The position numbers and the translations under genes are program-made. Shown here one piece after another: positions 1-18,732 of a DNA stretch of 42,222 nt. The notes under the pieces were generated by a model that had not been told where the DNA came from, made no database searches, and was given only the letters and a program-made list of their open reading frames with translations. This DNA comes from a virus, in the IMG/VR virus record IMGVR_UViG_2728369266_000002, positions 1 to 42,222 of that record; one strand, 5' to 3'. Each line of letters starts with the position of its first letter. Position 1 is the stretch's first letter.

Positions 1-95
1 TGAGAACCAGAGGGCTGACGGCCCCATGACGGCCCCAGAGACCCTTGTCGCAGCAACGGAGCAGGTATAGCGTGGAAACACTCCAAACGATCCTG
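1..95. repeat. Left copy of the 95-bp perfect direct repeat (identical to 42128..42222)
   Basis: Base-by-base identity read from the sequence. It contains the last 23 codons and stop of the integrase reading frame, and a tandem 11-mer TGACGGCCCCA x2 at 16..37. Confidence 0.95.
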
Positions 96-310
96 GACTG
101 AAGCGAGCGTTTGACCTACCAGGACCGACGTCGACTGAATGGCGTTTGACCTGCAATTACAGGACTGACGACTACCGATCGGTACCGACGATTGCCGAGT
201 GTCTGACGGCCCTTAGACGGCCCGGATGATCTTCAAACGGAAGCGGCGGGTCTTGGGTGACCAACGCTCCAAAGCAACCCGATTCCACTAATAGGAAGGT
301 TTCCTAAGAG
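96..310. promoter_or_regulatory. Putative att (attP arm-type) region downstream of int
   Basis: GC is visibly lower and no credible ORF is present. GCGTTTGACCT occurs at 107..117 and 142..152, each followed by ACCAGGAC-CGACG or ACAGGACTGACG. TGACGGCCC and TAGACGGCCC occur at 204..212 and 214..223 and match the tandem pair at 16..37. CTyCAAAsg occurs at 81..89, 231..239 and 267..275. Confidence 0.5.
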
Positions 311-493
311 ATGTTACCGGCTCTCCGACCTGCCCGTCTGCTACCCGGTCTACTGCGCGGCCTCGTCTGGTTCACCCTCGGGGCGCTGCTCGGCATCGCC
401 CTCGCGACCGCCTACTCCCCGGCACGCCCGCCCGGCTGGAGTCCGGCCGACGTGCCGGGCCCGACGCCCGCCCCCTCGATCTCCACCCCGTAA
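311..493 (+). CDS. Small membrane protein (60 aa), hypothetical
   Basis: The ATG has GGAAGG about 12 nt upstream. One hydrophobic helix (LVWFTLGALLGIALATAY) is followed by a Pro-rich tail, and a stem-loop follows the ORF. Confidence 0.5.
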   Translation: MLPALRPARLLPGLLRGLVWFTLGALLGIALATAYSPARPPGWSPADVPGPTPAPSISTP

Positions 494-499
494 CGAAGC

Positions 500-535
500 G
501 GCCCCGGCCGGTGCTGGAACACCGGTCGCGGGGCC
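500..535 (+). terminator. GC-rich stem-loop, possible terminator or attenuator
   Basis: GGCCCCGGCCGGTG - ctggaa - CACCGGTCGCGGGGCC. The stem is imperfect and there is no U-tract. Confidence 0.4.
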
Positions 536-569
536 TTGATCACCACCTGCTCACGACAGGAGATGACCC

Positions 570-1367
570 GTGGAACACAGTAACGAATCCGCCCCGTCCG
601 CGACGGTGCGTCGGACCGGTCAGCGTGTGGCCGCGCAGGCGCTGAGCCTGGCGCTGGGCGTTGATCTGCCGGTGGCGGACTGGAGCATCGACCGCCGGGG
701 CGACCGGCTCTACGGCCAGTTCGGCGCCGACAGCATCGACGCGGTGACCGCCTGGGCGGAGCGCTTCGGCGGCGAGGTCGAGTACTTCCTGACCGGCTAC
801 CGGATGGCGCTGGTGCACCTGGACCTGTTCGGGACTCCGGCGCGGGTGTGGTGCCCGCTGAGCGGTGACCCCGGTACGGAGCTGCCCGCCGAGCCGCCGG
901 CCCCGGTCGAGTCGCTGAGCGTCGGTTCGCAGGCCGTCGTCGGCCTTGGCGACCGCTCGCCCGCCCCGGGTACCTTCTCCGAGTTGGCCGACCGGGCGGA
1001 GCGGCGCCGCGCCGAGCTGCGTGCGGCCCCGGTCTACATCCCGCCGACGCCCACCGTGTTGGGCGCCACGCTGCGGCTGGCCGCGCAGGTCGCCGACGAG
1101 CTGGGCGAGGTGCCCGGCACCCAGGCCACCGTCTACTCCGACCTGGCCGGCCGCCCGGTGGTCGACATCAGCGTCCCCTCCCGGCAGCCGATCGAGCACC
1201 GCCGGGCGCTGGTCGACGCGGCCGCCGCCCTGGGGCAGGTCACCACCGCCGAGCACCGGGGCGCCCGCCTCGCCGAGCTGACGATCCACGACTACGAGGG
1301 TTCGGGTGCCGAGGTCTGGGTGGGCGCCCGTATCCGCGACGAGGCCGACGCGGAGGCGACCCGATGA
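570..1367 (+). CDS. Hypothetical protein with two similar ~100-aa halves
   Basis: The GTG start has AGGAG 8 nt upstream and the composition is protein-like. The stop overlaps the next start (ATGA at 1364..1367). Confidence 0.75.
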   Translation: MEHSNESAPSATVRRTGQRVAAQALSLALGVDLPVADWSIDRRGDRLYGQFGADSIDAVTAWAERFGGEVEYFLTGYRMALVHLDLFGTPARVWCPLSGDPGTELPAEPPAPVESLSVGSQAVVGLGDRSPAPGTFSELADRAERRRAELRAAPVYIPPTPTVLGATLRLAAQVADELGEVPGTQATVYSDLAGRPVVDISVPSRQPIEHRRALVDAAAALGQVTTAEHRGARLAELTIHDYEGSGAEVWVGARIRDEADAEATR

Positions 1368-2689
1368 GCGACTTCGTCTTCTCCCTGCCCCCGGCAATCC
1401 TGGCGGTGCTGACCGTGGCGGCCGTGGCGGTCCCGGCGCTGGTGGTGTGGCTGGTGTGGCGGTCGGTCAGCGAGATGGCGAAGCGGTTCGCCAAGGGCGG
1501 CACCACCGCCCTGCTCGCCTTCTTCGTCGCGGTCACCATGGCGCTGAGCGCGTCCGGGCTGATCGGGTTCGGGTACGGCGAGATGGGCCTGGACGGGTGG
1601 CTGACGCCGCTGAGCGTGGCCGTGTTCCTCGCCCTGGACGGCGCGGCGCTGGCGATCGCGCGCAGCGTGTGGCTGCTCAACCGCGACGGCAAGAGCGCGG
1701 GGGTGCACCGGGCGTTCATGTGGGTGCTCGTCGCCGCGTCGGCGTGGTTCAACTGGGTGCACGCGCCCGAGGTGTTCGCCGCCCAGGCCGCCTACGCGCT
1801 GTTCCCGGTGTCGGCGGCGGTGCTGTTCGAGCTGATCCTGGCCGCGCGCCGCAAGGCCGACGAGGTCATCGACCGGCGCATCGGGGTGGAGCGGTGGCTG
1901 CACCCGGTGGAGATGGTGCGGGTGCGCTGGCTGCTGGCCGCCGACGCGCAGTTGGCGGCCGATGTGGCGACCCGCCGGGTGCGCGTGCAGGCCGCCGCCA
2001 ACTCCCTGTACCGGGTGCGCCAGATGGCCGGGGCGCCGGCGCCGTTCGGGCTGGGGTGGGTGATGCCCGGCATCTACCGCAGGGCGGTACGGGCTGCCCA
2101 GGCCGCGGCCGCGCGGGCGGACTTCGCCGACCCCCTGGCGGCCGCCGAGGTGGTCCGCCAGTTGCAGGTGCTCACCCTCGTCGAGCGGTTCGCCGGGGCG
2201 GACTACCGCACCCCGCACGAGGCCCGCGACCTGGTCGCCAACCTCATCACCCCCGCCAACCTCGGAGTTGGCGGGGGTGCCGACGAGGTCGGCCTGTACG
2301 CGGAGTTCCGGGCGATCCTCGCCGGGGTCGGCCTGGACGCCGCACCGGCGGAGCGGCCGCATCTGGCGGTGGTCGCCGAGCAGCCGCCCACCCCCGCCAA
2401 CCACGGGGGCGGCGCCGTCGAGCCGGGCCCGACCGCTCCCGCCTGGTCGCTGGAGGAGGCCGCCGCGGCGGTCGACTGGGGTGCCGTCCCGGCCGAGGAG
2501 GTTGGCGGCCTGGTGGCGGATCTGGCGGCGGACTTCGTGACCGACCGCCAGGACTCTGGCGCCCCGGCGTGGGGGGCGGGCAAGACCTTCGCCCGCGCCC
2601 TGCTCGCGGCCGGCTGCCCGCTGTCGGACCGCCAGCTGCGCGACTACGTCAAGCGCGCCCAGCGCGACCTGGAGTCCACCGGCTCCTGA
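1364..2689 (+). CDS. Polytopic membrane protein, DUF2637-like (Spd-like candidate)
   Basis: ATGA coupling to the upstream gene. Several hydrophobic helices lie in the first ~170 aa, followed by an Ala/Arg-rich soluble C-terminal half. The gene sits directly upstream of the FtsK/SpoIIIE gene. The family assignment is from memory. Confidence 0.7.
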   Translation: MSDFVFSLPPAILAVLTVAAVAVPALVVWLVWRSVSEMAKRFAKGGTTALLAFFVAVTMALSASGLIGFGYGEMGLDGWLTPLSVAVFLALDGAALAIARSVWLLNRDGKSAGVHRAFMWVLVAASAWFNWVHAPEVFAAQAAYALFPVSAAVLFELILAARRKADEVIDRRIGVERWLHPVEMVRVRWLLAADAQLAADVATRRVRVQAAANSLYRVRQMAGAPAPFGLGWVMPGIYRRAVRAAQAAAARADFADPLAAAEVVRQLQVLTLVERFAGADYRTPHEARDLVANLITPANLGVGGGADEVGLYAEFRAILAGVGLDAAPAERPHLAVVAEQPPTPANHGGGAVEPGPTAPAWSLEEAAAAVDWGAVPAEEVGGLVADLAADFVTDRQDSGAPAWGAGKTFARALLAAGCPLSDRQLRDYVKRAQRDLESTGS

Positions 2690-2793
2690 CCGGCGCCCGT
2701 CGCCCGCCCGCCCATGGCCTGCATGACACAGGTCATGATCGGGCGGGTGGCGGGGACCGGGCCAGGTCCACCACTCCGATGAAGGGACACGCC

Positions 2794-2943
2794 ATGGCCA
2801 AGATCAGGGTCTACGCCAAGGACGGATCGGTCCTGGACGTCACCACAGAAAACCTCGACGACCAGCGGTTTTATGAGGACCTGCCGTTCAACTCCGACGC
2901 CGTGAGCAGGGTGACGGTCGTCGAGGAACGCGACGAGAAGTAG
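2794..2943 (+). CDS. Small hypothetical protein (49 aa)
   Basis: The ATG at 2794 is preceded by GAAGGGA, with an alternative ATG at 2779. The sequence is non-repetitive and acidic (MAKIRVYAKDGSVLDV...). Confidence 0.55.
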   Translation: MAKIRVYAKDGSVLDVTTENLDDQRFYEDLPFNSDAVSRVTVVEERDEK

Positions 2944-2948
2944 CCGGT

Positions 2949-2991
2949 CCGGGCCGCCGCTGCGATCCCTGGCAGGAACGCGGCGGCCCGG
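2949..2991 (+). terminator. Stem-loop between the small ORF and the FtsK-like gene
   Basis: CCGGGCCGCCGC (2949..2960) pairs perfectly with GCGGCGGCCCGG (2980..2991), with a 19-nt loop. Confidence 0.4.
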
Positions 2992-3031
2992 ATGCCCCAC
3001 ATCCTTCGATGAGGAACGGAGCCCCACCAGC

Positions 3032-5155
3032 ATGGCACTGCTGTCCCACCGGCCGGAAGAGTCCGGCGAGGTCGAGCGGAAGGTGTTCGACGGCGAGATC
3101 GTCGACGAGGCGCCCACCGACACCGTCCGGGTGGACGAGGTGCGCGTGGACGCCCCCGAGGTGTTGGACGACACCGGGTCGTGGGTGGCGCGGCGCCGCG
3201 CCCTGCTGGCCGACGCGCCGCCGATCATCCCTCCGTACCTGCGCACCCGCGAGCAGTTGGAGGAGACCGCGCGGTGGGCGGTGGCCTACTACGCGCACGT
3301 CGGCGCGTTCCACGCCACCCGCTCCCCGTTCTACATGCTGCGCCTCATGGCTCGCTCCCCGCGCGGCGCGGGGCGGCTGATCGGCCGCTGGGTGGCGTGG
3401 GTGGCCGACGCCCAGGCCGCGCCCGTGCACGCCAAGGTCGCCGCGTCCGGCGACGTGCAAGCGTGGCTGGTGCTGTCGCGCGAGCACTCCCGCCGGGTCA
3501 AGCCGCGCCGCATCACCTCCGCCGTGGTCGCGGTCCCGGTGGCGCTGGCGATGCTGACCGCGGTGCTGGTGATGCCCGCCTGGGTGAGCGGGCTGGGGGT
3601 GTGGCTGCTGCTGTGCCTGCTCGGGCTGGCCGGTGGGGACCCTGACCGGCCCCTGATCGCCCGCTACGTGGCCGCCCAGCTCCAGCGGCCGCTGGCCTCC
3701 CCGGAGATCGAGGCGGCGCTGGAGGCCATCGGCATCAAGGGCAAGGTCGACTTCGTCGAGCAGATCGCCGTCGACGGCCCCGGCTGGCGCGCCGAACTCG
3801 ACCTCCCGCCGGGGGTGCTGGCCGAGCGGCTGCTGGACAAGCGCAAGGAGCTGGCCGGGGCGATGCGCCGCCCCCTGCAGTGCGTCTGGCCGAGCGTGGG
3901 CAGCGAGCATCCGTCGCGGGCGGTGCTGTGGGTGGCCAAGCGCGACCCCCGCACCATCAAGCGCGCGTGGCCGCTGCTCGCCGACGGCCAGGCCGACATG
4001 TACGCCGCGTTCCCCTTCGGCGTCACCCCCCGCGGGGAGACCGTGCCGCTGACCCTGATCGGCACCAACGTCCTCATCGGCGGCGTGATGGGGTCGGGGA
4101 AGACCAGCGCGGTGCTGGTGATCGCGCTGGCCGGGGCGCTGGACCCCACCTGCCAACTGTGGCTGTTCGAGCTGAAGGGCTCCGGGGACATGGAGTCCGT
4201 CCAGCCCGTCGCCCACCGCTACGTCCAAGGCGACGACGACGAGCACTGCCACGCCGCCCTGGACGCCATGTACGCGCTGGAGGCCGAGCTGAAGCGCCGC
4301 AAGAAGATCGTCGCCGCGCTGCCGGTGGAAGACGTCCCCACCGGCCGCAAGGTCACCCGCGCCCTGGCCGACAAGTACCCGCACCTGGACCTGGACCCGA
4401 TCCTGGCCATCTTCGACGAGGTGCACACCGTCTTCGAGCACCCCGAGGTCGGCAAGGAAGCCGCCGAGGTCGCCGGCCGCCTGATCCGCAAGGCGCGCGC
4501 CTACGGGATCATCCTCGTGCTCACCACCCAGAAACCCGACGGCGACTCCATCCCCAAGATGGTGTCCGACAACGCCATTGTCCGGTTCTGCTTGGCGATC
4601 ACCGGGCACATCGCCAACGACCTGGTGCTGGGCACCGGCATGTACAAACGCGGCATCCGCGCCAACATCTTCGAACCCGCCGAGGGCGACGACCCCAAGG
4701 ATTCGGGAACCGGCTGGCTGACCCGCTCGGCCACCAGCGCCAAGATCGTGCGCGCCTACTTCATCGGCCAGGCCGACGCCCGCGCCGTCGGCCGCCGCGC
4801 CCTCGCGCTGCGCACCGCCGCCGGGACGCTGACCGGGGAGGCCGCCGGACGCACCGTCGAGCCCGTGGTGCGCGAGACGATCGCCGACCACCTGCACGCG
4901 GTGTGGCCCGAGGGCGCCGACCGGGTGCACTCCCACCGCCTCGTGGAAGCCCTGGCCGCCTACCGGCCCGAGCTGTACGCCCCGTGGCTGGAAGAGGACG
5001 ACCCCGCCGCCCGCTCCACCACCCTGGCCGCCGCCCTCAAACCCCACCGCATCCCCACCCACCAGCTCACCATCCGCGACTGCTGCGGCGGCGCCAAGGG
5101 CGTGCGCCACCAGGACCTCCCGCCCGCCAAGACCCCCGCCGACGACGACGAATAG
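3032..5155 (+). CDS. FtsK/SpoIIIE-family DNA translocase, TraB/TraSA-like (conjugative-type)
   Basis: Walker A is GVMGSGKTS (about 4081..4110) and Walker B is ILAIFDEVH (about 4400..4426). Hydrophobic helices lie near aa 165-200 and the C-terminal tail is helical. The ATG has GGAG upstream. Confidence 0.9.
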   Translation: MALLSHRPEESGEVERKVFDGEIVDEAPTDTVRVDEVRVDAPEVLDDTGSWVARRRALLADAPPIIPPYLRTREQLEETARWAVAYYAHVGAFHATRSPFYMLRLMARSPRGAGRLIGRWVAWVADAQAAPVHAKVAASGDVQAWLVLSREHSRRVKPRRITSAVVAVPVALAMLTAVLVMPAWVSGLGVWLLLCLLGLAGGDPDRPLIARYVAAQLQRPLASPEIEAALEAIGIKGKVDFVEQIAVDGPGWRAELDLPPGVLAERLLDKRKELAGAMRRPLQCVWPSVGSEHPSRAVLWVAKRDPRTIKRAWPLLADGQADMYAAFPFGVTPRGETVPLTLIGTNVLIGGVMGSGKTSAVLVIALAGALDPTCQLWLFELKGSGDMESVQPVAHRYVQGDDDEHCHAALDAMYALEAELKRRKKIVAALPVEDVPTGRKVTRALADKYPHLDLDPILAIFDEVHTVFEHPEVGKEAAEVAGRLIRKARAYGIILVLTTQKPDGDSIPKMVSDNAIVRFCLAITGHIANDLVLGTGMYKRGIRANIFEPAEGDDPKDSGTGWLTRSATSAKIVRAYFIGQADARAVGRRALALRTAAGTLTGEAAGRTVEPVVRETIADHLHAVWPEGADRVHSHRLVEALAAYRPELYAPWLEEDDPAARSTTLAAALKPHRIPTHQLTIRDCCGGAKGVRHQDLPPAKTPADDDE

Positions 5156-5183
5156 CGCCCGGAAGGCCCCGTCGGCCACCACC

Positions 5184-5283
5184 CCGAAACCCGATATCAG
5201 CCCAGGTCACACACCATTCCAGCCGACATCGCAGGCGAAACCGGTTTCACGGCCAGGCGAAACCACCACCCCCACCCGAAACC
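5184..5283. repeat. Four copies of CGAAACC just downstream of the FtsK-like gene (candidate clt/TRS repeats)
   Basis: CCGAAACC occurs at 5184..5191, AGGCGAAACC at 5233..5242 and 5255..5264, and CCGAAACC at 5276..5283. The palindrome GAAACCGGTTTC lies at 5237..5248. Confidence 0.6.
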
Positions 5284-5288
5284 AGTCC

Positions 5289-5311
5289 GCGGCCCCTCCC
5301 GGTGGGGCCGC
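5289..5311 (+). terminator. Stem-loop GCGGCCCC-tcccggt-GGGGCCGC
   Basis: Perfect 8-bp stem with a 7-nt loop, about 135 nt after the FtsK-like stop. Confidence 0.45.
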
Positions 5312-5319
5312 GAACGGGG

Positions 5320-5352
5320 GGTGCACATGCACCCGCCGGTGCACGTACACCC
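5320..5352. repeat. Direct 15-mer repeat GGTGCACaTgCACCC / GGTGCACgTaCACCC
   Basis: Copies at 5320..5334 and 5338..5352 are 13/15 identical. Each contains the GTGCAC palindrome. Confidence 0.6.
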
Positions 5353-5373
5353 CGACCGAGGTCCCCAGGACCT

Positions 5374-5434
5374 CAGTCGTGGCCGTCTCACCCACGACTG
5401 CCCCAGGCTTTCAACCGTGGGCGAGACGGCCACG
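5374..5434. repeat. Nested, mutually exclusive inverted repeats (structured DNA or RNA element)
   Basis: CAGTCGTGG (5374..5382) pairs with CCACGACTG (5392..5400). The 19-mer CGTGGCCGTCTCaCCCACG (5379..5397) pairs with CGTGGGcGAGACGGCCACG (5416..5434), with one mismatch. Confidence 0.55.
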
Positions 5435-5498
5435 GTTACCGGCACCGGCAAGCTGGCCGACCTGCACGAATCTGCGGGGCCCTTTGGGGGCCTCGCAA

Positions 5499-5522
5499 GG
5501 GGTACGGACTAGTCCGTACCCC
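5499..5522. repeat. Perfect 24-bp palindrome GGGGTACGGACTAGTCCGTACCCC
   Basis: Read directly from the sequence. It lies between the convergent FtsK-like and NUDIX genes and could act as a bidirectional terminator or a dimer-binding site. Confidence 0.6.
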
Positions 5523-5523
5523 T

Positions 5524-5545
5524 GGGTACACGCTGCCGTGTACCC
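5524..5545 (-). terminator. Hairpin GGGTACACG-ctgc-CGTGTACCC, 10 nt downstream of the NUDIX stop
   Basis: Perfect 9-bp stem with a 4-nt loop. The arms share the GGGTACA/TGTACCC core with the hairpin at 33611..33639. Confidence 0.55.
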
Positions 5546-5554
5546 CCTGCGCGT

Positions 5555-6046
5555 TCACCCCAGGTACGGCTCGCCGTCCTTCAGGCCGTGGTCGATGCGG
5601 CGGCGGATCGCGGGGTGGATGTCGTAGTCGCCGAGGTCGGCCGGGTCGACCCACCGGACTTCGAACGCCTCGCTGGGCTCGGGCTGGATCCGGCCGCCGA
5701 CGGGGCGGCCGCGGAAGCAGGTGTTGATGGGCTGGCGGACCTCGTCGACCTTGCCGCGCTTGATGTAGGCGATGAGGTGGTCGGGGTCGGAGAAGATCCC
5801 GACGAGGCCGGTGACCTCGATGTCGATGCCGGTCTCCTCCTTGCACTCCCGGATGCCGGCCTGGGCGACGGTCTCCCCGGTCTTCACGCCGCCGGTGGGG
5901 ATGGTCCACAGGTTGTTGTCGGTGCGCTGCAGGAGCAGCACCCGTCCGCGGTCGTCGCGGACGAACACCGACGCGGACGCTTTGCGGCTGGTGGGGGCGG
6001 GGGCGTTGGGGTCTTGCCAGTAATCGATCCTGCGGGTACGGGTCAT
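5555..6046 (-). CDS. NUDIX hydrolase (Pif-like candidate)
   Basis: The NUDIX box is GGVKTGETVAQAGIRECKEETGI (about 5826..5894). The ATG at 6046 overlaps the upstream stop (ATGA). The longer ORF start at 6088 is less likely. Confidence 0.9.
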   Translation of the reverse strand: MTRTRRIDYWQDPNAPAPTSRKASASVFVRDDRGRVLLLQRTDNNLWTIPTGGVKTGETVAQAGIRECKEETGIDIEVTGLVGIFSDPDHLIAYIKRGKVDEVRQPINTCFRGRPVGGRIQPEPSEAFEVRWVDPADLGDYDIHPAIRRRIDHGLKDGEPYLG

Positions 6047-6786
6047 CGGTGCTCCAGTGCCATGTCGGCGGGCTTCGCCGATCCCCATACCCGCTCGAAG
6101 CTCTCGACGTAGGTGGTGAAGTAGGCGCCGTCGATGCGGCGCAGGTGCATGGTGGGGGTGTAGGCGGCCAGCACTCCGTAGGCGTGGACGTTGACGATCA
6201 TCTCGTCGTCGAACCGGTAGATGCTGTTGTACAGCGGAGTGTCGTGCAGCCGCACCTCCACCGAGGGCGGCATCCGCTCCCGGTAGTAGTACAGGACGGC
6301 GGCGACCCGCCCGGCCACGCCGCCGCCGATGCGGTGCTCGGTGTCGCGGAACGCCAGCTGCTTGCCGTCGGGATCACCCAGCAGCAGCCGCACCCGGGCG
6401 CCGGCCTGGGCCTTGGCGACCAGGGTCGGAATCCAGTCCGGGTGCTCCTCGGTGAGGAACAGCCCCGCGTAGGCCAGCAGGTCGACGTCGCGCTCGGCCG
6501 CGCGCAGCAGCTCGGTCCACAGGTGCTTGGGGACGTCGTTGCGGCGCGGCCAGGTGGCCACCAGCTCCGCCCCGGCCAGCGAGGCGCCGTTGACGGTGTC
6601 GGGCCACAGGTAGCTCTCGTCCTCCTGGACGATCGCCGCCACCCGGTAGCGGGTGCGCGGGTAGGGCACGGCCGTCCCGGCCAGCCACCGTTCGACGGTC
6701 TTCGTCGACACCTCGGCCGCCGCGGCGAAGGACCGGATGTCGTGCCCGGCCCGGTGCATCGCCCGCCGGAGCCGTTCGTTCACCAT
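6043..6786 (-). CDS. XRE-family HTH regulator with a ~180-aa C-terminal domain (DUF5919-like, from memory)
   Basis: The N-terminal HTH is IRSFAAAAEVSTKTVERWLAG. The gene is translationally coupled to the NUDIX gene and divergent from 6858..7172. Confidence 0.85.
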   Translation of the reverse strand: MVNERLRRAMHRAGHDIRSFAAAAEVSTKTVERWLAGTAVPYPRTRYRVAAIVQEDESYLWPDTVNGASLAGAELVATWPRRNDVPKHLWTELLRAAERDVDLLAYAGLFLTEEHPDWIPTLVAKAQAGARVRLLLGDPDGKQLAFRDTEHRIGGGVAGRVAAVLYYYRERMPPSVEVRLHDTPLYNSIYRFDDEMIVNVHAYGVLAAYTPTMHLRRIDGAYFTTYVESFERVWGSAKPADMALEHR

Positions 6787-8444: not shown

Positions 8445-9164
8445 TCAGGAGGCGCCGCCGCTGGTGAGGTCGCGCAGGCGGCGCAGCGCACGCTCCAGGA
8501 GCGTGCCCGCGTTCTTGCGGTCGGAGCTGTCGGCGGTGTCGGGGTCCTGGAGCTGGTAGCGCCAGACCTCCGCGGCGAGCGCCGGGCCGGCCGCGCGGAT
8601 CCGCTCGTCGATCAGCTTCTGGATCTTCTTCAGGTCGTCGCCGGTCAATTCGTCCTCCTCGGTGGGGGTGCCGCCGCTCGGCGGCTTGCTGAAGGTGCCG
8701 TTCTCCACGAGCGCGTAGAGCGCGTCGCCGGGGCACTCGGTGGCGATGAAGTCGCGGTGGCCGCGCACCGCGCCGGACACGCCGCGCTCCATCAGGTAGG
8801 CCCGCAGGTCGCGCACCCCCCGCACCTGCTCGTCCGTCGGCCGCTCGCTGCCGCCGAGCATCAGCGTGACGGAGTACCAGTTCGCGTTCCCCGAGGTCGT
8901 CCCCTGCGCCGCCTGGTACCGGTTGAGTCCGCGGCCGGTGAAGACCTCGCCGTGGCGGCAGGCGGCGTAGGAATACCCCACGTCCGCCCATCCGTTGCCG
9001 TTGATGTGGTCGGAGCGGATGCGCTTCCAGTAGGCGACGCACTCGTCGTGGCCGTCGAGGTCGGTGGCGGGGCCGTTGTAGTGGACGACGAGGCCGGAGC
9101 GCGGGTTCGCGTAGTCGGCGCCGGACGGCCCCCAGCCGAAGTACGAGCGCGGGCGGATGATCAT
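8445..9164 (-). CDS. Endolysin, N-acetylmuramoyl-L-alanine amidase (Amidase_2/PGRP type)
   Basis: Recognised motifs: GLVVHYNG..., GWADVGYSY and HRDFIATECPG. The ATG at 9164 has AGGAGG upstream and overlaps the upstream stop (ATGA). Confidence 0.9.
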   Translation of the reverse strand: MIIRPRSYFGWGPSGADYANPRSGLVVHYNGPATDLDGHDECVAYWKRIRSDHINGNGWADVGYSYAACRHGEVFTGRGLNRYQAAQGTTSGNANWYSVTLMLGGSERPTDEQVRGVRDLRAYLMERGVSGAVRGHRDFIATECPGDALYALVENGTFSKPPSGGTPTEEDELTGDDLKKIQKLIDERIRAAGPALAAEVWRYQLQDPDTADSSDRKNAGTLLERALRRLRDLTSGGAS

Positions 9165-9529
9165 ACGGGGCCTCCTGGTGGCTGGACGGTGATGTCCTGG
9201 CGGATGGTGGGGGCGGTCTGGTGGTCGGCGGTGTGGGCCTGGAGTGCGGTGCTGAGGTCGCCGAGCTTGCCGTCCAGGGCGCGGACCTTGTCCTTCAGCG
9301 ATCCGCCGGAGTTGTACGTCACCTCGTGCTCGATGCGCTGCACCCGCTCCATCAGGCCGGGGCGGGCGTCGACGCCGGGGCGGGCGGGCTCGCCGAGTAG
9401 GTCGTCGATGAGGTGGCCGGCCCGGCGCAGCCACCGGCCGGCGGCCCAGGTGAGACCGCCGACGGCGGCGAGGCCGGCGAGGAGGGCGGCGAGCTGCGCC
9501 ACGGTGAGGCTGCTGATCCAGTCAGGCAC
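9161..9529 (-). CDS. N-terminally anchored membrane protein, putative holin or lysis protein
   Basis: The TM helix is LTVAQLAALLAGLAAVGGLTWAA. The gene is coupled to the endolysin. Confidence 0.7.
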   Translation of the reverse strand: MPDWISSLTVAQLAALLAGLAAVGGLTWAAGRWLRRAGHLIDDLLGEPARPGVDARPGLMERVQRIEHEVTYNSGGSLKDKVRALDGKLGDLSTALQAHTADHQTAPTIRQDITVQPPGGPV

Positions 9530-10133
9530 GGGGGTGGTCCTCTCTGGGCTGGTCGCCGAGCAGGCGGCGGCGGTAGGCGGCGGCGCGGTCGGCGGGGGCG
9601 GTGCGGGCGGTCGTGGGGGTGGCGGCCTGGCGCAGGTGGGCGCGGGCGCGGGTGACGTGGTCGGCCATGACGGCGATCACCTCGGGGTCGGTGGGGGACT
9701 CGGCCAGCACCTGGTCGAGCAGCTTGTCGGGGTCGGCCAGGGGGACGCGCTGCCGGGCGGCGGCCACGCGTAGCCGGTGGGCGGCGCGGGCCTCAGTGAT
9801 GCTGTCGGCGGTGTGCAGGGTGCTCGGCATGGTGTCGCCGACGGCCACGCCGGGGCGGGCGACGAGGGCCGGCGCGTAAAAGCCGGCCGCGACCGCGACG
9901 TCTTCACGGACCCGTGCGGGGTCGGCGGGGTCAGGGATGAAGGGCTCGGCCAGCACCATGTCCAGGGCCTCGGCGGCGTCGACGCCGTACTCGGCCATCC
10001 GCCATTCCAGGCAGTCGGCGGGGAAGACGTGCTCGTGCGCCTCGCCATCGGCCCGGCGGTAGCGGATGCGCCAGCAGGGATGCCCGGGAGCGGGCTCGGC
10101 GGTGGTCACCGACTCCACCGTGTACTCGGTCAT
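9522..10133 (-). CDS. Hypothetical protein (203 aa)
   Basis: The ATG at 10133 begins MTEYTVESV.... The upstream part of listed ORF 9522..11528 is Arg/His/Asp-rich shadow frame inside the tail gene. Confidence 0.7.
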   Translation of the reverse strand: MTEYTVESVTTAEPAPGHPCWRIRYRRADGEAHEHVFPADCLEWRMAEYGVDAAEALDMVLAEPFIPDPADPARVREDVAVAAGFYAPALVARPGVAVGDTMPSTLHTADSITEARAAHRLRVAAARQRVPLADPDKLLDQVLAESPTDPEVIAVMADHVTRARAHLRQAATPTTARTAPADRAAAYRRRLLGDQPREDHPRA

Positions 10134-10144
10134 GCGGGCCCCTC

Positions 10145-13100
10145 TCATACGCGGAAGCACCAGAAGTTCACCCACACGCTCACGTTCGAGCCGGAGGTGA
10201 AGTTGGCGAAGGCCACCGTGAAGGAGTCCTGCGACGCCTCGGTCATCTTGTGGTGGAAGAACCTGCCGGAGTCTCCGCCGCTGGTGACCAGGCCGTAGAC
10301 GGGTGCCATCGCGGTGTCCATCGTGGGGCCGTAGCTCAAGGTCACGCTGTTCACGGTCGCGAAGAACTGCCTGCCGGTGAAAATGGCCTGGTCGCTCGCG
10401 GCGGCGACGTAGTCGAGGTAGCGGCCGTAGGTGCGGATCCGGCCGTCGTCGCCGTAGCGGGTCTCGACGCGCACCCCGGCGGGCGGGTTCCAACCGATGC
10501 GGGTGCCGGCCGCGTTGCCGTAGATCATCGGGCCGCTGGTGTGGGCCAGCTCGATGTAGTCCTCGGTGGCGTCGATCTGGGCGACGGTGTCGCCGCCCGC
10601 GATGGCGTTCACCCTGTTGAGGATCGCGCCCGCCGCGACCGTCAGCCGCGACCGCACGGTCCCGGCGTTGTTCTCGCCGGTCTCCAAGGCCATGGTCGCC
10701 TCGTCGGGGAAGGCCCCGTCGGTGGAGTAGATGCGGCTGAAGTTCGTCGAGGTGGAGGGGTAGAAGCGGATCTCGGCCAGCCACGCCGGATCGATGACGA
10801 CGCGCCGCCCGGACACGGCCGTGCGGATCACCGACCCGGTGACGATCTTGCCGGTGATGGCGTCGGCCGCCACCGCCTGGGCGGTCACCGCGCCCGCCTC
10901 GATCTTGTCGGCCGTGATGGCGTTGGCGGCGATGTGTCCGGCCTGGATGGCCAGGGCCTGGATCAGCGCCCCGGTGATCGACTCGGCGACGATCTTCTCG
11001 GCGGCGACGAGGGTGCCGTCGACGATGTGCGCGCCGTCGATCACCTCGCCGATCAGGTCGGTGTCCACCAGCGGCTGGGTGGCGATGACGCCGCTGGCGC
11101 TCTCCGCGCTCTCGTTGCCGGAGGTGTCGGTGGCGGTGAACCAGATCGTGCGGTCCTCGCCGTAGGGGGCGCCGACGATGACGACGCCGCCCGCGCCGCG
11201 CAGCTGGTCGACGGCCACCGGCGGGTTGGTGCCGTCCGACATCCACACCGTGACGTAGGCGAAGTCGCGCGGCATCGGGGCACCGGCGTGGTCGAGCCCG
11301 TCCCAGTCGGCGCGGATCACCCCGAGCCGGGTGGACAGCACCGGCGTCGACGGGGCCGGGGGCGGGGTGGCGTCGCCGGGCATGGTGACGGCGTAGACGG
11401 CGCTGAACTCGCCCTTGCGGCCGGTGGTGGCGACGGCGCGGACCTTGAACGCGTACTGCTCGCCGGTCTGCAGCGGTGACCAGGTGGTCGTCGTCTCGTC
11501 GGCCTCGGTGGCGGTGAGCTGGTACCACGGCTCGCCGGAGAGGTTGATGCGGGCGTACAGCTCGTAGCCGTCGACCTCCAGCGCCACCCCGGCCACGTCG
11601 GCGGTGACCGCGCCCCAGGTCGCGGTGATCTGGCCGCGCGCCGTCCCGTCCAGGTCGATGTACGCCTGCGGGTCGACGACCAGCCCGAGCGGCGCGGCCG
11701 GGGTGCGCCCGGCCGGGACGTCGGGCGCGGGTTGGGCGCCGGACCCGCCGCCGGCGGTCGCGCCGCCCACGATGCCGCGGGTGCGCCGCGCCATCCGGAT
11801 CTCGCGCTCGATCAACCGGTCATTGAGGACCAGGTTGCCCGAGACGCGTCCGTCCTGGTCGCGGGTGAGGGTGATCTGGCGGATCCGCAGCGGCGCCATG
11901 GTGCCGCCGTCGCCGGGGGCGAGGATGTAGTCGCCGGGCGCGTAGTCGCGCCACGGCAGCCACCGGGCGGTGTAGAGCGCCACGGCGCGGGTGATCTGCA
12001 CGCGCTCGGCGCCGCCGCGCTCCAGGGCTGCCTCGGCCAGCAGGATCGCGGTGCCGGTGTCGCTCACCCCGCCCTGGGTGATGTAGGTCTCCCACCGCCC
12101 CCACGGCAAGTCGGCGGACGGGTTGTCCAGCTCCAGGCTGAACCCCGCTTCGCCCTGCAGGTACACCGCCGAGACGGCATCCTCCAGGGTGCCCTCGTCG
12201 GGCGCCTCGACCACGTCGCGGCCGAGCCGCAGGTCGACCGGCGCCGGCCCGGACGCCAGGTCGGCGGCCAGCTCCGAATCCGCGTTGAAGACCCGCAGGG
12301 TCCGCCCCTGCGTGCACCAGTCCACCACGCCCTGCTCGGCCAGGTTGAGCAGCGCCGTGCCGGCGTCCAGGCCGGGCGCGTAGTAGATGGTGAGGACGGT
12401 GTCCCAGGGCTGGCCGTCGCTGTCGTGGGTGGTGGTGAAGTCGGTGTCCAGCCCGGCCAGTGCGCCGCGGGCGTGGCCTTCGTCGATCCAGGTGCGCAGG
12501 ATCTCCCCGGCGGTGGCCGACAGGAAGGGGCGCTTGCCGTCGACGAGCGTCGAGGGGTCCGGCGGCGGGTAGAGCGGGAGCTTGCCCAGCTGCCAGGCGT
12601 AGCCGGGCAGCTGGTAGTCGCGGGCGCCGGTCTGGTCGGTGACGTCGCCGCTGCGCGCGATGCGCAGGAACCGGGAGTTCGGCGGCTCGAACCAGGTGCC
12701 GGACCCGGGGTCGACCTCCACCGCGACCTCGACGGGCTGCGCCAGCCAGCTCGCGTTGGCGGCCAGCGTCGAGTACCGCACCCGCGCCGACGGGGTGTCG
12801 TTGAGCGGGGCGGCCACCTCCACCGACAGCGGGCTCGGCAGCACGCCCATGCGCGCGCCGTTCGGCTCGTAGGCGACCAGGCGCAGGTCCAGGTAGGCCG
12901 GCTGCTGCGGGTCGATGGGGATCGTGTCGTCACCGTCGCCCACCCCGGCCGGGGTGGCCACGGCCGCGATCGCCCCGCTGCCCGAGGTCGCGCGGGTCCC
13001 GGCCGCGGCGACGGCCGCCGGCGCCGGGACGGTGCCGGAGCCGGCCGCCGCGCGGGTGCCGGAGCCGCCGAGCAGCGCCGCGCCGGGAAGCTCGGCCTCG

Positions 13101-14104
13101 CCCTGGCCGTGCTTCACCCCGGTGCCGCCGGTCGCCGCGGTCGCGGTGATGGTGCCGGCGCCGTTGGGGCCCAGCGCCTCGCCCTCGCCCGCCAGCTGCG
13201 CCGCGCCGACCAGGGCGCCGGACCCTGCGCCACCCTTGGCGCCGGCGGCCGCGATGACCGCGATGCCGCTCGTCGCGCCGGTGCCGGTCAGGTCCACGTA
13301 CCGGGTGAGGTTGAGCAGGTTGTCGAGCGCGGCCCTGGTCTCGGGCCCGGTGATCCCGTCGACGAGCAGCCCGGCGTCGGCCTGGAAGGCGCGCACGGCG
13401 GTGTCGGTCTCCCCGCCCACCGACCCGTAGTCGCCGTCCGCGCCGAAGACCGGCAGCGGGTAGCCGGCCGCGATGAGGTCCTGCTGCAGCCGGGTGACGT
13501 CGATGCCGACGTCGCCGGGGCCGAGGATGCCGTCACCCGGCCAGTCGGCGGTGTCGCCGATCCTGACCCAGTCCAGGAACGCCGGACCTCGGCTCGCGCC
13601 GCCGGCGGTGAAGATCGCCGTGGTGTGGCTGCCCGACCGGCCGCTGGTCGCCTGATAATCGGCCGCGCCGCTGCTGAGGTAGTTCGTCCAGTAGAACCGG
13701 TAGGTGCTCGTGCTGCCGGTGGCGATCGCCTCAATGCGGATGGGCCGGTTGAACAGGTTGGCGGCCTGGGCGTTGTGGGAGACGCCGCCGAGGGTGAGCA
13801 CGCCGGTCTCGATCACGATCGTCGTGCCCGCGCCGAGGTTGATGCTCAGGTAGCCGCCGGTGGGGATGTAGGCGTAGGTCGCGAACGCCACCGAGGTGTT
13901 GCTGGTGGAGATCTGCCGCGACATCGACCCGACGGTGCCGGTGGCGCCGAGCCGGATGCACGGCCAGTCGGCGGTGTCGGGCCGCACCGCGTACATCGCC
14001 GGGCCGCTGATCGGGCTGAACCCGTTGCCGTGCAGCGTGCTGTTGGTCGTCGTCACCGCGACGCCGGGGCGGCCGTGGGTGGTGTTGACCCTGGTGAGCG
14101 CCAT
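10145..14104 (-). CDS. Tail-tip protein (Tal-like, 1319 aa) with an N-terminal lectin-like plus peptidoglycan-binding extension and FN3-like repeats
   Basis: The ATG at 14104 overlaps the Dit stop (TAATG). A PG_binding_1-like motif spans aa ~198-265. A Gly/Ala-rich linker spans aa ~271-393. Tal-type N-terminus (AYLDLRLVAYEPNGARMGVL) follows. The gene sits after TMP and Dit. Confidence 0.85.
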   Translation of the reverse strand: MALTRVNTTHGRPGVAVTTTNSTLHGNGFSPISGPAMYAVRPDTADWPCIRLGATGTVGSMSRQISTSNTSVAFATYAYIPTGGYLSINLGAGTTIVIETGVLTLGGVSHNAQAANLFNRPIRIEAIATGSTSTYRFYWTNYLSSGAADYQATSGRSGSHTTAIFTAGGASRGPAFLDWVRIGDTADWPGDGILGPGDVGIDVTRLQQDLIAAGYPLPVFGADGDYGSVGGETDTAVRAFQADAGLLVDGITGPETRAALDNLLNLTRYVDLTGTGATSGIAVIAAAGAKGGAGSGALVGAAQLAGEGEALGPNGAGTITATAATGGTGVKHGQGEAELPGAALLGGSGTRAAAGSGTVPAPAAVAAAGTRATSGSGAIAAVATPAGVGDGDDTIPIDPQQPAYLDLRLVAYEPNGARMGVLPSPLSVEVAAPLNDTPSARVRYSTLAANASWLAQPVEVAVEVDPGSGTWFEPPNSRFLRIARSGDVTDQTGARDYQLPGYAWQLGKLPLYPPPDPSTLVDGKRPFLSATAGEILRTWIDEGHARGALAGLDTDFTTTHDSDGQPWDTVLTIYYAPGLDAGTALLNLAEQGVVDWCTQGRTLRVFNADSELAADLASGPAPVDLRLGRDVVEAPDEGTLEDAVSAVYLQGEAGFSLELDNPSADLPWGRWETYITQGGVSDTGTAILLAEAALERGGAERVQITRAVALYTARWLPWRDYAPGDYILAPGDGGTMAPLRIRQITLTRDQDGRVSGNLVLNDRLIEREIRMARRTRGIVGGATAGGGSGAQPAPDVPAGRTPAAPLGLVVDPQAYIDLDGTARGQITATWGAVTADVAGVALEVDGYELYARINLSGEPWYQLTATEADETTTTWSPLQTGEQYAFKVRAVATTGRKGEFSAVYAVTMPGDATPPPAPSTPVLSTRLGVIRADWDGLDHAGAPMPRDFAYVTVWMSDGTNPPVAVDQLRGAGGVVIVGAPYGEDRTIWFTATDTSGNESAESASGVIATQPLVDTDLIGEVIDGAHIVDGTLVAAEKIVAESITGALIQALAIQAGHIAANAITADKIEAGAVTAQAVAADAITGKIVTGSVIRTAVSGRRVVIDPAWLAEIRFYPSTSTNFSRIYSTDGAFPDEATMALETGENNAGTVRSRLTVAAGAILNRVNAIAGGDTVAQIDATEDYIELAHTSGPMIYGNAAGTRIGWNPPAGVRVETRYGDDGRIRTYGRYLDYVAAASDQAIFTGRQFFATVNSVTLSYGPTMDTAMAPVYGLVTSGGDSGRFFHHKMTEASQDSFTVAFANFTSGSNVSVWVNFWCFRV

Positions 14105-14994
14105 TACGCGTAGGCCCTCCTCGCCCGGATCGCAATGCTGCTGGCCGCGGTGGTGCCGACGGCGGTGGCGGACACGACGATCCGCCTGGTGTGGGCGTCG
14201 TCGCCGACGACCGTCGGGGTGAGCTGCAGCCAGCGCGACGCGGATCCGGGGCCGGACGCGTCGACCTGGCCGGTGATGTCGGTGCCCTCGTCGAGGTCCC
14301 AGGTGTCGGTGTCGACCATGGCGGCGCGCAGCCGGCCGCAGTCGAGCAGCAGCCGCTCGCCGGCGGCCAGGGTGCCGGGCCAGGTGACCGCGCCGCCCGT
14401 CGGCCCGTCGGCCACCGTGACGCCGGTGGCCGGCCCCGTGGCGCGGATCAGCGCGTCGGGGATCGGGGCGGTGGCGCCGGCCAGGGTGGTGACGATCTGC
14501 CCGCCGCCCTCGCCGTCGAGGTCCCCGGTCCAGGTGACGGGGTCGACGTCGCGCCACAGCGCCGAGGGGATGCGCAGCAGCACGCGGAGCTGGGCGGCGT
14601 GCGCGGCGACCTGGGCGTCGCCGAGGTATTCGGGCTGGATCTCGGCGATGCTCTTGGCGTCGGCCTGCAGCACCCGCGATCCGATGGTGTGGCGCAGGTC
14701 CAGCAGCCGGTGGCGCACTCCCAGGACCGCCGACAGCGCGTCGAGGTTGGCCTCCAGTTGCGGCTCGCCGCCGTGCACGCCCTCGGGGGTGAGGTCGCGC
14801 ACCAGCAGCGTCATGCCCAGCACGGTCACCGCGGCGTCCTCACCCACCACCGGCAGCTCGCCGGACCTTCCCGGCACGGTCACCTCGATGTTGCGGGTGC
14901 CGGGCAGCGGGCGGCGCGGGCTGCCGGTGGCCAGGATGCGCCAGCAGCCGGCCGGGTGGTCCAGCGGGACGGAGTCGATGCTGTAGGTCGACAC
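14104..14994 (-). CDS. Distal tail protein (Dit-like / phage tail family)
   Basis: The call rests on position between the tape measure and Tal genes, size (296 aa) and beta-rich composition. Confidence 0.75.
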   Translation of the reverse strand: MSTYSIDSVPLDHPAGCWRILATGSPRRPLPGTRNIEVTVPGRSGELPVVGEDAAVTVLGMTLLVRDLTPEGVHGGEPQLEANLDALSAVLGVRHRLLDLRHTIGSRVLQADAKSIAEIQPEYLGDAQVAAHAAQLRVLLRIPSALWRDVDPVTWTGDLDGEGGGQIVTTLAGATAPIPDALIRATGPATGVTVADGPTGGAVTWPGTLAAGERLLLDCGRLRAAMVDTDTWDLDEGTDITGQVDASGPGSASRWLQLTPTVVGDDAHTRRIVVSATAVGTTAASSIAIRARRAYA

Positions 14995-14995
14995 C

Positions 14996-17488: not shown

Positions 17489-17509
17489 GACGTCACCCCC
17501 TCGGGTCGG

Positions 17510-18261
17510 TTATTCAGGTGTGTCGGGCGCGTCGATGGTGGTGCCGCCCATCGCCTCGTGCGCGGAGCGGAGCGCGGCCCACATGTCCTCGTCGGACTGG
17601 TAGTCGTCCCACTTCGGGACCAGGTCCGAGGGGTTGATCAGGGGGGCGCCCTTCTTGCGGTTCACGTTGTAGATCGCCGCGACGATCTGGGCGGCGGCCA
17701 CGTCGATGCGCTTGCCGCCCAGCGGGCCGGCCACCTTCTCATAAACGGCCCACTCGGTCAGCTCCCGGGAGCTGGTCTCCTCCAGCAGCTTCTCGACCGA
17801 GGAGGATCCGAGGTGGCCGGCCAGGCGGAAATAGAACTGCCGCTCTGGCCGGCGCCTCATTCCCCCAGGAGTTCGTCTACGTCCTCGTCGGTGATGCCGC
17901 TGAGCTTCTGGCACGCCTGGAACACGCGGTCGAGGACGGCGGCGTTCTTGCGGCCCAGGGCGGCGGTGTCGGCGGTGCTGAACAGCTGCTGGCCCTGCTC
18001 GTTGATGGCGCACTTGGCGACGAGCTTGGCGCGGATGTTCTCCAGCCGCAGCTTCTTGCCGTTGCCCGCGATGCCCGCCTCGAAGGCGTCGCGCTCGGTG
18101 CCGGACAGGGACCTGATCTTGACGCGGCCGCCCCACTCCGGGACGTCGACGTAGTCGGTCAGCGCGTCGCGGGCGCTCAGGATCTGGTCACGGCCCAGCA
18201 CGCCGCCGGTCAGCGGCACCTCGGCCACGGGCTCGATGTCGTCCTTCTTCGTGCCGAACAT
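17510..18261 (-). CDS. Tail assembly chaperone G-T fusion via -1 programmed frameshift
   Basis: The -1 frame stays open from the G5 run (17862..17866) down to 17510 and encodes a protein-like sequence (QFYFRLAGHLGSSSVEKLLEETSSRELTEWAVYEKVAG...). Confidence 0.65.
17857..18261 (-). CDS. Tail assembly chaperone (gpG analogue)
   Basis: The ATG at 18261 is preceded by GAGGAGAG. The gene lies between the major tail and tape measure genes and ends at the slippery G5 run. Confidence 0.8.
   Translation of the reverse strand: MFGTKKDDIEPVAEVPLTGGVLGRDQILSARDALTDYVDVPEWGGRVKIRSLSGTERDAFEAGIAGNGKKLRLENIRAKLVAKCAINEQGQQLFSTADTAALGRKNAAVLDRVFQACQKLSGITDEDVDELLGE
17860..17868 (-). other. Candidate -1 slippery site CUGGGGGAA
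   Basis: The minus strand reads CTG GGG GAA TGA. A Gly-tRNA can re-pair one base back on the G5 run. Confidence 0.55.
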
Positions 18262-18313
18262 GGCTCTCCTCATCTGGTGTGCGCCGCCGCGCTAGCCGCG
18301 GCGGCCGGGATGG

Positions 18314-18730
18314 TCAGGGGGCGGGGGTGATGGTGGGGCGGCCGGTGACCTGCCAGGTGATGGTCCCGGCCATCTGGCCGTCTACGGGCATCTCGCGCTC
18401 GAAGCCGGTCATGATCGCGCTGAACTCCCAGACCTCGCCGACCGGGCTCTCCATCTGGTAGGTGCGGGCGTCGTCGTCTTCGAGGTCGGCGACCAGGAGG
18501 TCGTGCTTGTCGGGGTCGTAGTGCACCTCGACTGAGACTTCGCCCCCGTTGATCAGACCGCCGATGAACTCCCGGTAGCGGGTCGGGGAATCGTGTGCGG
18601 TGACGTCGTAGGTGTCGCGCTCCGGCGACGGCCCGCTGAAGGTGCCGACGTTGCCGATCGCGGTGAAGATCTCCGGCGACCCGCCGTCGCCGCGGCGCAG
18701 CTCGGTGCCGAAGGCGTCGCGTCCTGCCAT
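18314..18730 (-). CDS. Major tail protein
   Basis: The ATG at 18730 has GAGGAG upstream. 138 aa and beta-rich, positioned upstream of the chaperone pair. Confidence 0.8.
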   Translation of the reverse strand: MAGRDAFGTELRRGDGGSPEIFTAIGNVGTFSGPSPERDTYDVTAHDSPTRYREFIGGLINGGEVSVEVHYDPDKHDLLVADLEDDDARTYQMESPVGEVWEFSAIMTGFEREMPVDGQMAGTITWQVTGRPTITPAP

Positions 18731-18732
18731 GG

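Follow-up and report, generated by a model that had tools for sequence, protein, structure and literature searches.

A TraB-like ATPase with a clt-like repeat cassette beside the integrase of a temperate actinophage genome

In Streptomyces, a single FtsK-like ATPase, TraB, and a transfer locus acting in cis (clt) suffice for the transfer of double-stranded DNA, and Spd proteins drive intramycelial spread (PMC4447253). The domain at the C-terminal position in TraB and FtsK reads 8-bp DNA motifs (PMC4447253), and the clt of pIJ101 consists of an inverted repeat and direct repeats of G(C/A)AAC (PMC3583192). In the integrative and conjugative elements of actinomycetes (AICEs), a cluster of NUDIX and XRE genes (nud-xre) is a hallmark, and Pif of pSAM2, a NUDIX protein, is an exclusion-type transfer-immunity factor (PMC2440964). 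Gene flow by phages and gene flow by conjugative elements are usually treated apart, and large-scale searches for hybrids rely on relaxase and type IV secretion system models, which are blind to the one-protein TraB system (PMC7969092). Among phages, the plasmid-phage pZL12 uses a tra gene for its transfer (cited in PMC3583192), and Thoma et al. 2015 proposed a role in spreading phage DNA for the SpdB2 homologues of phiC31 and VWB (PMC4447253). Here, we analyse the IMG/VR virus record IMGVR_UViG_2728369266_000002, positions 1 to 42,222 (the whole stretch of 42,222 nucleotides is called the window), a circular assembly of Allonocardiopsis opalescens, and within it a gene module at 311–6786 that includes a TraB-like ATPase.

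We consider it probable that the window is a temperate tailed actinophage with a working Streptomyces-type conjugation module for double-stranded DNA beside its integrase, which would allow lysis-independent, TraB-driven movement of its genome. At the sequence level, direct support comes from gene content, TraB homology, predicted domain architecture, a conserved cassette, co-variation of the putative DNA-binding domain with the cassette motif, and ancestry shared with AICE modules. The ATPase would be anchored in the membrane by N-terminal helices and form an FtsK-like hexameric pump, and a C-terminal winged helix would bind GGTTTCG/CGAAACC repeats (clt) just 3′ of the gene. With such a pump the double-stranded phage circle, excised or replicating, could conjugate into an adjacent hypha, spread within the mycelium by crossing septal cross-walls, or do both. 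A DUF2637 membrane protein and small co-transcribed open reading frames (ORFs) may serve as Spd-like helpers, and an XRE/NUDIX pair may regulate or limit transfer, as in AICEs. Binding of the cassette by the ATPase, pore formation, actual transfer, the timing of module expression and the roles of the helper and NUDIX proteins are what we infer.

The ATPase and the repeats 3′ of its gene

By BLASTP, the ATPase matches pSVH1 TraB at 33% identity over 392 amino acids (E 3e-38, 139 bits) and pSG5 TraB at 30% identity, as against 30 bits (E 1e-6) for the best PDB sequence match, FtsK of E. coli and P. aeruginosa. Judged on these scores it is far closer to TraB than to canonical FtsK, in a comparison that rests on pSVH1/pSG5 TraB and PDB FtsK. 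An initial annotation of this DNA had called the ATPase TraB-type; the two bit scores place it with conjugative TraB proteins, and the family includes bona fide AICE and plasmid copies. The Walker A (GVMGSGKTS, amino acids 351–359) and Walker B (ILAIFDEVH, 457–465) motifs that it had pointed out are in the translation and invariant in 20 homologues.

An AlphaFold model built on 20 homologues (mean predicted local distance difference test score, pLDDT, 77) places N-terminal membrane helices at amino acids ~142–200, followed by a beta domain, a RecA-type motor (~327–575, pLDDT 85–95) and a C-terminal domain (617–692). The predicted membrane part comprises a hydropathy segment at 163–181 and long hydrophobic helices at 142–200. 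The C-terminal domain is modelled as a three-helix bundle (634–644, 646–654 and 658–672) with a beta-hairpin (677–692) at pLDDT 80–91, and its predicted topology is that of a winged helix. Foldseek ranks the FtsK motor first (E ~1e-15, TM-score 0.64–0.70 on the target), then the conjugative coupling protein TcpA, and then EccC/EssC and HerA.

The initial annotation had also noted a repeat-rich noncoding locus after the ATPase gene. The noncoding stretch 5156–5554 is indeed repeat-rich beyond chance and, from its alignment with related loci, holds a conserved clt-like cassette. For each of 90 related loci we took the commonest 7-mer within 500 bp 3′ of the ATPase gene, and in dozens of them this was GGTTTCG, the reverse complement of CGAAACC; as a positive control, the same method applied to pSVH1 gave GACCCGG, the core of the known 8-bp TraB recognition repeat (PMC4447253). 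Four copies of CGAAACC lie within 100 bp (5185–5283) and are the only ones on either strand of the 42-kb window. Across 73 non-redundant loci of the large ATPase clade (1.43 Mb), 228 of 359 GGTTTCG/CGAAACC copies (64%) fall in the 250-bp bin after the ATPase stop codon, a density of 3.26 per locus compared with ~0.03 per bin elsewhere (about 100-fold); in 64 of the 73 loci that bin holds three or more copies. The usual layout is copies at +14 and +33, the palindrome CGAAACCGGTTTCG at +48/+55 and a copy at ~+105, with gaps of 19, 22 and 50 nt; read on the minus strand, the gaps in the window are 19, 22 and 51 nt. When reverse-complemented, 5150–5320 aligns with cassettes in forward orientation from relatives at no more than 50–70% ATPase identity, and hence the window carries the same cassette, inverted. 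Invariant in this alignment are the core GAAACCGGTTTCG and a second CG.GTTTCG. A structured RNA was considered and rejected, given that there was no Rfam match and the alignment held no compensatory pairs; the absent RNA signal fits DNA repeats bound by a protein.

In the GGTTTCG clade, the C-terminal domain is the most conserved part of the ATPase, with a mean identity to the window of 65% (motor 59%, N-terminus 49%). In comparison with the deep clade of the ATPase tree it is the least conserved (29%, motor 42%), and the loci of deep-clade ATPases carry other clustered motifs (among them CCGCTAG, GACACCC and CGATAGC). This pattern would be expected if the C-terminal domain reads the repeats.

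A C-terminal winged helix with oriented 7–8-bp repeats also resembles FtsK-gamma with its FtsK-orienting polar sequences (KOPS), and both the fold and the best structural matches are those of the FtsK motor. The ATPase, loaded at the cassette, might accordingly clear or partition phage circles (replicating or excised), or else the chromosome of the lysogen, as septa close in hyphal compartmentalisation and sporulation, and so keep the prophage in spores; phage papers propose “DNA segregation” for FtsK-like genes (PMC4569894, PMC3706429), and assembly as a free circle implies that an extrachromosomal phase exists. We nevertheless regard segregation as unlikely, given that the sequence is much nearer to TraB than to FtsK, that the repeats sit at one locus like clt (4 copies in 100 bp of 42 kb) and are not genome-wide and polarised like KOPS, and that the same ATPase and cassette occur in small integrative AICEs, which are defined by transfer. 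It is a rival only in part, as it overlaps mechanistically with intramycelial spread by TraB.

A conserved cis-acting repeat cassette on the DNA of the element itself is unexpected for a defence pump. That the module serves defence, exclusion or host takeover, with the membrane ATPase and the NUDIX protein blocking or expelling incoming phage or plasmid DNA or altering host nucleotide pools, is, going by the cassette and the structural matches, in our view very improbable. PHROGs class phage FtsK/SpoIIIE-like proteins as “moron, auxiliary metabolic gene and host takeover”, and the NUDIX factor Pif of pSAM2 is of exclusion type (PMC2440964). HerA/FtsK-type ATPases of defence complexes are among the lower-ranked Foldseek matches, but the HerA structures of defence type trail FtsK and TcpA by a wide margin.

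The module in prophages and integrative elements

Scanning a single genome per species turned up 183 relatives of the ATPase; 80 loci with 10-kb flanks were analysed together with viral contigs and plasmids, and the flanking proteins were clustered and the clusters annotated. Among the 73 non-redundant loci, phage head, tail or lysis genes lie within 10 kb in 35, whereas 8 are AICEs or AICE-like; a further 2 are IMG/VR viral contigs, 7 are short contigs and the context of 21 is unresolved. The family of ATPase and cassette thus spans no fewer than 35 prophages and no fewer than 8 AICE-like elements. Two or more unrelated sets of terminase, portal and capsid genes are represented among the phage contexts, as is a tail-first layout like that of the window, and the association of the module with phage genes recurs across many genera. 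In a neighbour-joining tree, the subclade of the window’s ATPase (65–71% identity) is wholly phage-associated, and AICE-like sublineages are nested among prophage ones. A deep clade (36–41% identity) consists mostly of small integrase-bearing elements and one more complete phage genome, pPaSha2.

An Actinoallomurus locus (L092) encodes DUF2637, an 80-aa ORF, the ATPase, NUDIX (minus strand), XRE (minus strand), RepAM/DUF3631, HTH_17, HTH_31 and an integrase, with no virion genes. By its gene content it is a pMEA300-type AICE with the gene order of the window, to which it is 54% identical in the ATPase, 67.5% in the NUDIX protein and 76% in the XRE regulator but only 21% in the integrase. The circular 18.4-kb NZ_CP107792 carries GntR, HD, NUDIX, XRE, DUF2637, ATPase, Prim-Pol and integrase genes. 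In AICEs that have the same ATPase and cassette and otherwise only rep, xis, int and regulators, transfer is the sole plausible role. The primase/helicase of the window (33659–36721) belongs to one protein cluster with the rep genes of the small AICE-like loci L002, L017, L019, L053, L059 and L086, which hints that replication modules, besides transfer modules, are common to these phages and AICEs. The proposal of the initial annotation that the window is a phage–AICE chimera is borne out at the level of anatomy and ancestry by the shared transfer module, although the window is not a one-off but a member of a widespread lineage: at least 35 other prophages contain the same ATPase. More tentatively, there may be a large overlooked lineage of temperate actinophages that are also AICEs (“conjugative prophages”), equipped with a TraB pump and a GGTTTCG clt and spreading without lysis, in one continuum that exchanges int, rep, tra and clt. 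If true, this could account for the absence of plaque-forming isolates from the lineage.

The distribution also bears on whether the module is passenger DNA, either an AICE fragment captured by recombination beside the phage attachment site (attP) or a tandem AICE, with no role in the phage life cycle. The module adjoins the integrase and the presumed attP, a typical spot for acquired genes, and element accretion at one attachment (att) site is common in Streptomyces (PMC9513070). Of the related loci compared, only AICE-like relatives share the NUDIX/XRE pair and other prophages do not, and in L003 the ATPase follows a block of Prim-Pol, xis and int that is possibly a neighbouring AICE. However, an intact ATPase, its catalytic residues invariant, is retained along with the cassette in 35 or more prophages, whose head modules are of two or more unrelated types, and the subclade of the window lies entirely in phage contexts. 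We searched for att repeats of the module’s own around 311–6786 and found only chance-level 15-mers. The lack of flanking repeats, the single integrase on one circular contig and the presence of the ATPase in other prophages argue against a separate element, as do the GC content and third-position GC of the module, which match the rest of the genome. We hence find a passenger origin distinctly unlikely, and the initial annotation, which had treated 311–6786 as part of the phage, stands on this point.

Several loci showed further features. The deep-clade genome pPaSha2 (CP052773, L001) of Pseudonocardia alni, deposited as a plasmid, carries terminase, portal, protease, capsid, holin and Bet recombinase genes, and its ATPase and DUF2637 genes lie beside the integrase. 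In L017, two tRNA-Val(TAC) genes (2791–2866 and 16309–16383) bracket a ~13.5-kb element with ATPase and rep and look like the att-site borders of an AICE. Four Streptomyces prophage relatives with the window layout (L024, L027, L028 and L049) have, at positions of about 4.3–5.4 kb in these loci, a tRNA-Arg(ACG) gene ~5 kb 5′ of the ATPase, with its 3′ end pointing away from the module; this is roughly the position expected of a prophage border if attP lies between int and the module. In L028, protein clusters c14 and c8, regulators usually found 3′ of the ATPase, are on the other side of the tRNA-Arg gene. Streptomyces prophages (for example L024 6290–9036, L069 6041–9867) have a conserved, translationally coupled operon 5′ of the ATPase (c106, c5, DUF6907, c33, a membrane protein and small ORFs) that is absent from the window. 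Large ORFs flanking distant homologues were considered as tape-measure proteins and proved to be host gyrA, pyruvate dehydrogenase E1 and lanB; the host gyrA beside small elements with integrase and ATPase carries a LAGLIDADG intein (L084 18462–22022, L087 16978–20694).

Module genes and the phage genome

Given that its first 95 bp recur as its last, the contig is circular, and the integrase runs straight into the module (Table 1). The gene content indicates a complete temperate siphovirus-type tailed-phage genome of 42.1 kb, in which a single replicon carries the large terminase, portal, major capsid, tail tape measure, lysis and integrase genes (PHROG, E 1e-37 to 1e-143). Nearly all virion, lysis and replication genes are on the minus strand according to PHROG and Pfam searches, and the ATPase is 100% identical to an A. 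opalescens protein. One integrase, an Xis-like gene and a replication module shared with the virion and lysis genes had been claimed before, and PHROG and Pfam agree, with a weak match for the Xis-like gene.

Table 1. Coordinates of features in the window
Position	Strand	Feature	Basis and remarks
1..95	.	Terminal overlap	Exact 95-nt prefix = suffix (42128-42222); circular unit 42,127 bp
96..310	.	Lower-GC intergenic stretch 3′ of integrase; presumed attP region	Sequence and AICE/phage convention that attP adjoins int (PMC2440964)
311..493	+	60-aa ORF, one hydrophobic segment, no family	ORF call, Pfam, transmembrane (TM) prediction
570..1367	+	265-aa protein, no family	No Pfam or PHROG match; no homologue in 90 related loci
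1364..2689	+	DUF2637 polytopic membrane protein, 441 aa, 4 predicted TM segments	Pfam E 1e-9
2764..2943	+	59-aa acidic ORF, no family	Between membrane protein and ATPase; position as orf108 of pSVH1 and 80-aa ORF of AICE L092
3032..5155	+	TraB-like FtsK/SpoIIIE double-stranded DNA translocase, 707 aa	Pfam, BLASTP, model
5170..5300	-	clt-like cassette, ~125 bp	CGAAACC at 5185, 5236, 5258, 5277; near-palindrome CGAAACCGGTTTCA at 5236-5249; inverted relative to ATPase gene
5378..5545	.	Hairpins between convergent genes, probable terminators	19-nt arms 5378-5434; perfect 13+13 palindrome 5498-5523; 5524-5545
5555..6088	-	NUDIX hydrolase, AICE-type	Pfam NUDIX E 1e-21; likely true start 6046
6043..6786	-	XRE-type helix-turn-helix (HTH) + DUF5919 regulator	HTH_31 and DUF5919 matches weak, under Pfam cut-offs; co-oriented with and upstream of NUDIX
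8445..28171	-	Lysis, tail, head and packaging block: endolysin, holin-like, 1470-aa tail protein, tape measure, capsid, scaffold, portal, large terminase, others	PHROGs, Pfam
8445-9434	-	Endolysin	PHROG/Pfam; holin-like gene also present
14996-17488	-	Tape measure	PHROG/Pfam
21434-22657	-	Major capsid	PHROG/Pfam; scaffold and portal also found
26017-27672	-	Large terminase	PHROG/Pfam
33659..37635	-	Replication genes: primase/helicase and helicase	PHROGs
39129..39437	-	Xis-type HTH_17 protein, weak match (22.9 bits)	Pfam; divergent from regulator-integrase pair
39880..40890	+	HTH_31 regulator, 336 aa	Directly 5′ of integrase; pairing as in AICE L092
40893..42197	+	Tyrosine integrase, sole one in genome	PHROG integrase E 6e-52; co-oriented with transfer module next on circle

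No near-identical DNA was found among 50,697 deposited phage records, and no tRNA gene in the presumed att region at 96–310. The genes scanned, a subset of the ORFs, include the integrase and no ParAB-type partition genes; the contig, a free circle, would suit either an excised phage or a plasmid state. A scan for promoter and terminator consensus sequences gave no usable signal in this high-GC genome. The 1470-aa tail protein (10145–14557) has PG_binding_1 (peptidoglycan-binding) and fn3 domains, and a Gp80-like fibre protein (29560–30003) is encoded away from the tail genes, in the interval that separates the terminase gene from the replication region.

The module ORFs 311–493, 570–1367, 1364–2689 and 3032–5155 on the plus strand and 5555–6088 and 6043–6786 on the minus strand have a third-position GC of 0.92–0.97, typical of real genes, and together with Pfam this supports the DUF2637, FtsK_SpoIIIE ATPase and convergent XRE/NUDIX genes first proposed for the module. 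The ORFs 570–1367 and 1364–2689 overlap by 4 nt, like translationally coupled spd operons. For the 265-aa product of 570–1367, which matches no family, the two domains named in the initial annotation would be putative. The DUF2637 protein, with plasmid matches at 35–41% identity, stands where SpdB2 stands in pSVH1 and pSG5. It was tried as a SpdB2 homologue and rejected (BLASTP E 2.0 against pSVH1/pSG5 SpdB2; hhalign probability 2.5%). Most loci have a polytopic membrane protein (2–5 predicted TM segments, 260–520 aa) on the same strand a few genes 5′ of the ATPase; these proteins split into several families (DUF2637, clusters c4 and c26, and others), which could not be unified into one.

The NUDIX ORF in its called form shares 46 nt with the XRE gene, whereas a second methionine at 6046 would give an overlap of 4 nt; the latter start is likelier than 6088, given that its overlap resembles the 11 nt seen in AICE L092. 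The arrangement of XRE followed by NUDIX suggests an operon with translational coupling. The NUDIX protein is also 46% identical to that of the AICE-like plasmid NZ_CP107792. Two short tandem repeats, TGTCGGTTAGA (2.5 copies) and TGTCGATGCGC (2.4 copies), lie at 6828–6873, just 5′ of the XRE/DUF5919 start, and may be an operator or promoter region.

Implications and relation to known systems

Several observations weigh against a working conjugation module in a viable phage. The Pfam FtsK_SpoIIIE (PF01580) score of 3032–5155 is 26.6 bits, barely over the cut-off of 24, and the cassette is inverted relative to the ATPase gene. The likeness of the DUF2637 protein to SpdB2 is confined to position, size and four-TM topology, with no sequence or profile homology, and the protein has no close relative in the 90 loci and is not conserved among relatives. 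A GntR Kor/TraR repressor, usual in TraB systems, was not found in the window, and its attP and integrated state were not located. The neighbour-joining tree was rooted on pSVH1/pSG5 TraB and is without support values. Finally, no isolated plaque-forming phage in INPHARED has this ATPase family (best match 27% identity), and all phage contexts are hence prophages or circular contigs of unproven viability.

If TraB-driven movement of the phage genome is real, lysogeny and cargo genes of temperate phages in antibiotic-producing actinomycetes could travel through the mycelium or to neighbours in a process that the donor survives and that needs no receptor. This would change models of prophage host range, immunity and horizontal transfer in Streptomyces and relatives, and it would also touch the question of where AICEs come from, for whose integration and replication modules a phage source was already assumed. 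The GGTTTCG cassette and the conserved C-terminal domain form a testable protein–DNA recognition pair and a possible tool to mobilise DNA in hard-to-transform actinomycetes.

The window resembles the TraB/clt systems of pSVH1 and pSG5 (also pIJ101 and pJV1) in having a single FtsK-like membrane ATPase, 30–33% identical over the motor domain, a C-terminal DNA-recognition domain (predicted in the window) and short direct repeats clustered beside the gene as clt. The order of a ~400-aa four-TM membrane protein, a small ORF and the ATPase is that of spdB2–orf108–traB in pSVH1. In contrast to these small plasmids, the replicon is a 42-kb tailed phage, the repeat is GGTTTCG instead of GACCCGGA, the N- and C-terminal domains of the ATPase are only about 19% identical to those of pSVH1/pSG5 TraB, and the partner is a DUF2637 protein without detectable SpdB2 homology, with no GntR TraR/Kor found.

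Isolated actinophages also carry FtsK-like ATPases (Thermobifida phage P1312 ORF63, cluster J mycobacteriophages, and Streptomyces phages Gilgamesh and Coruscant), and phiC31 and VWB carry Spd-like membrane proteins. In P1312, as in the window, the ATPase is paired with a large upstream ORF near the integrase; ORF63 was considered as a member of the same ATPase family and rejected (25% identity, E 0.025). The ATPases of isolated actinophages are at most 27% identical to that of the window and fall into other families, in many cases with no membrane or TraB-like features, and no clt-like cassette or AICE-type regulators are reported for them. The remark in the initial annotation that actinophage FtsK-like genes had no assigned role fits P1312, cluster J, Gilgamesh and others but missed two precedents, pZL12 and the Spd homologues of phiC31 and VWB.

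Phage ZL12 (pZL12, GQ919031) is likewise a tailed phage genome with an FtsK/SpoIIIE-like Tra (pZL12.71c) beside one or more membrane-protein genes and, going by the transfer cited in PMC3583192, shows in function that a phage may have two routes of transfer, and so is the precedent for one. We had considered pZL12.18c–20c as the tra genes; they are not FtsK-like, and the real tra is pZL12.71c. Unlike the 42-kb integrase-type temperate phage of the window, pZL12 is a 90-kb ParAB plasmid prophage without a GGTTTCG array, and pZL12.71c is a remote relative of the ATPase (25% identity over 139 aa, E 8e-4). In the literature covered, which leaves out most subscription journals, we found no description of integrase-type tailed prophages with a TraB–clt module or of the GGTTTCG cassette. 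What appears to be new here is hence the conserved cassette and the widespread module in integrase-type prophages, whereas pZL12 and the Spd remark on phiC31 and VWB make the phenomenon already known in kind.

AICEs in the strict sense are about 9–24 kb long and have no virion, packaging or lysis genes, whereas the window is 42.1 kb long with the full set, including terminase, portal, capsid, tape measure and endolysin. No AICE-type replication initiator (RepSA, RepAM/DUF3631 or Prim-Pol) turned up among the genes scanned, and, unlike AICEs, the window has no HD-domain (mdp) gene. It does hold the AICE gene set of integrase, Xis-type HTH protein, Tra ATPase, NUDIX hydrolase and XRE regulator, and its primase/helicase clusters with AICE-like rep. 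With AICE L092 it shares the order of DUF2637, small ORF, ATPase, cassette, NUDIX and XRE on the minus strand and, further on, HTH_31 and integrase.

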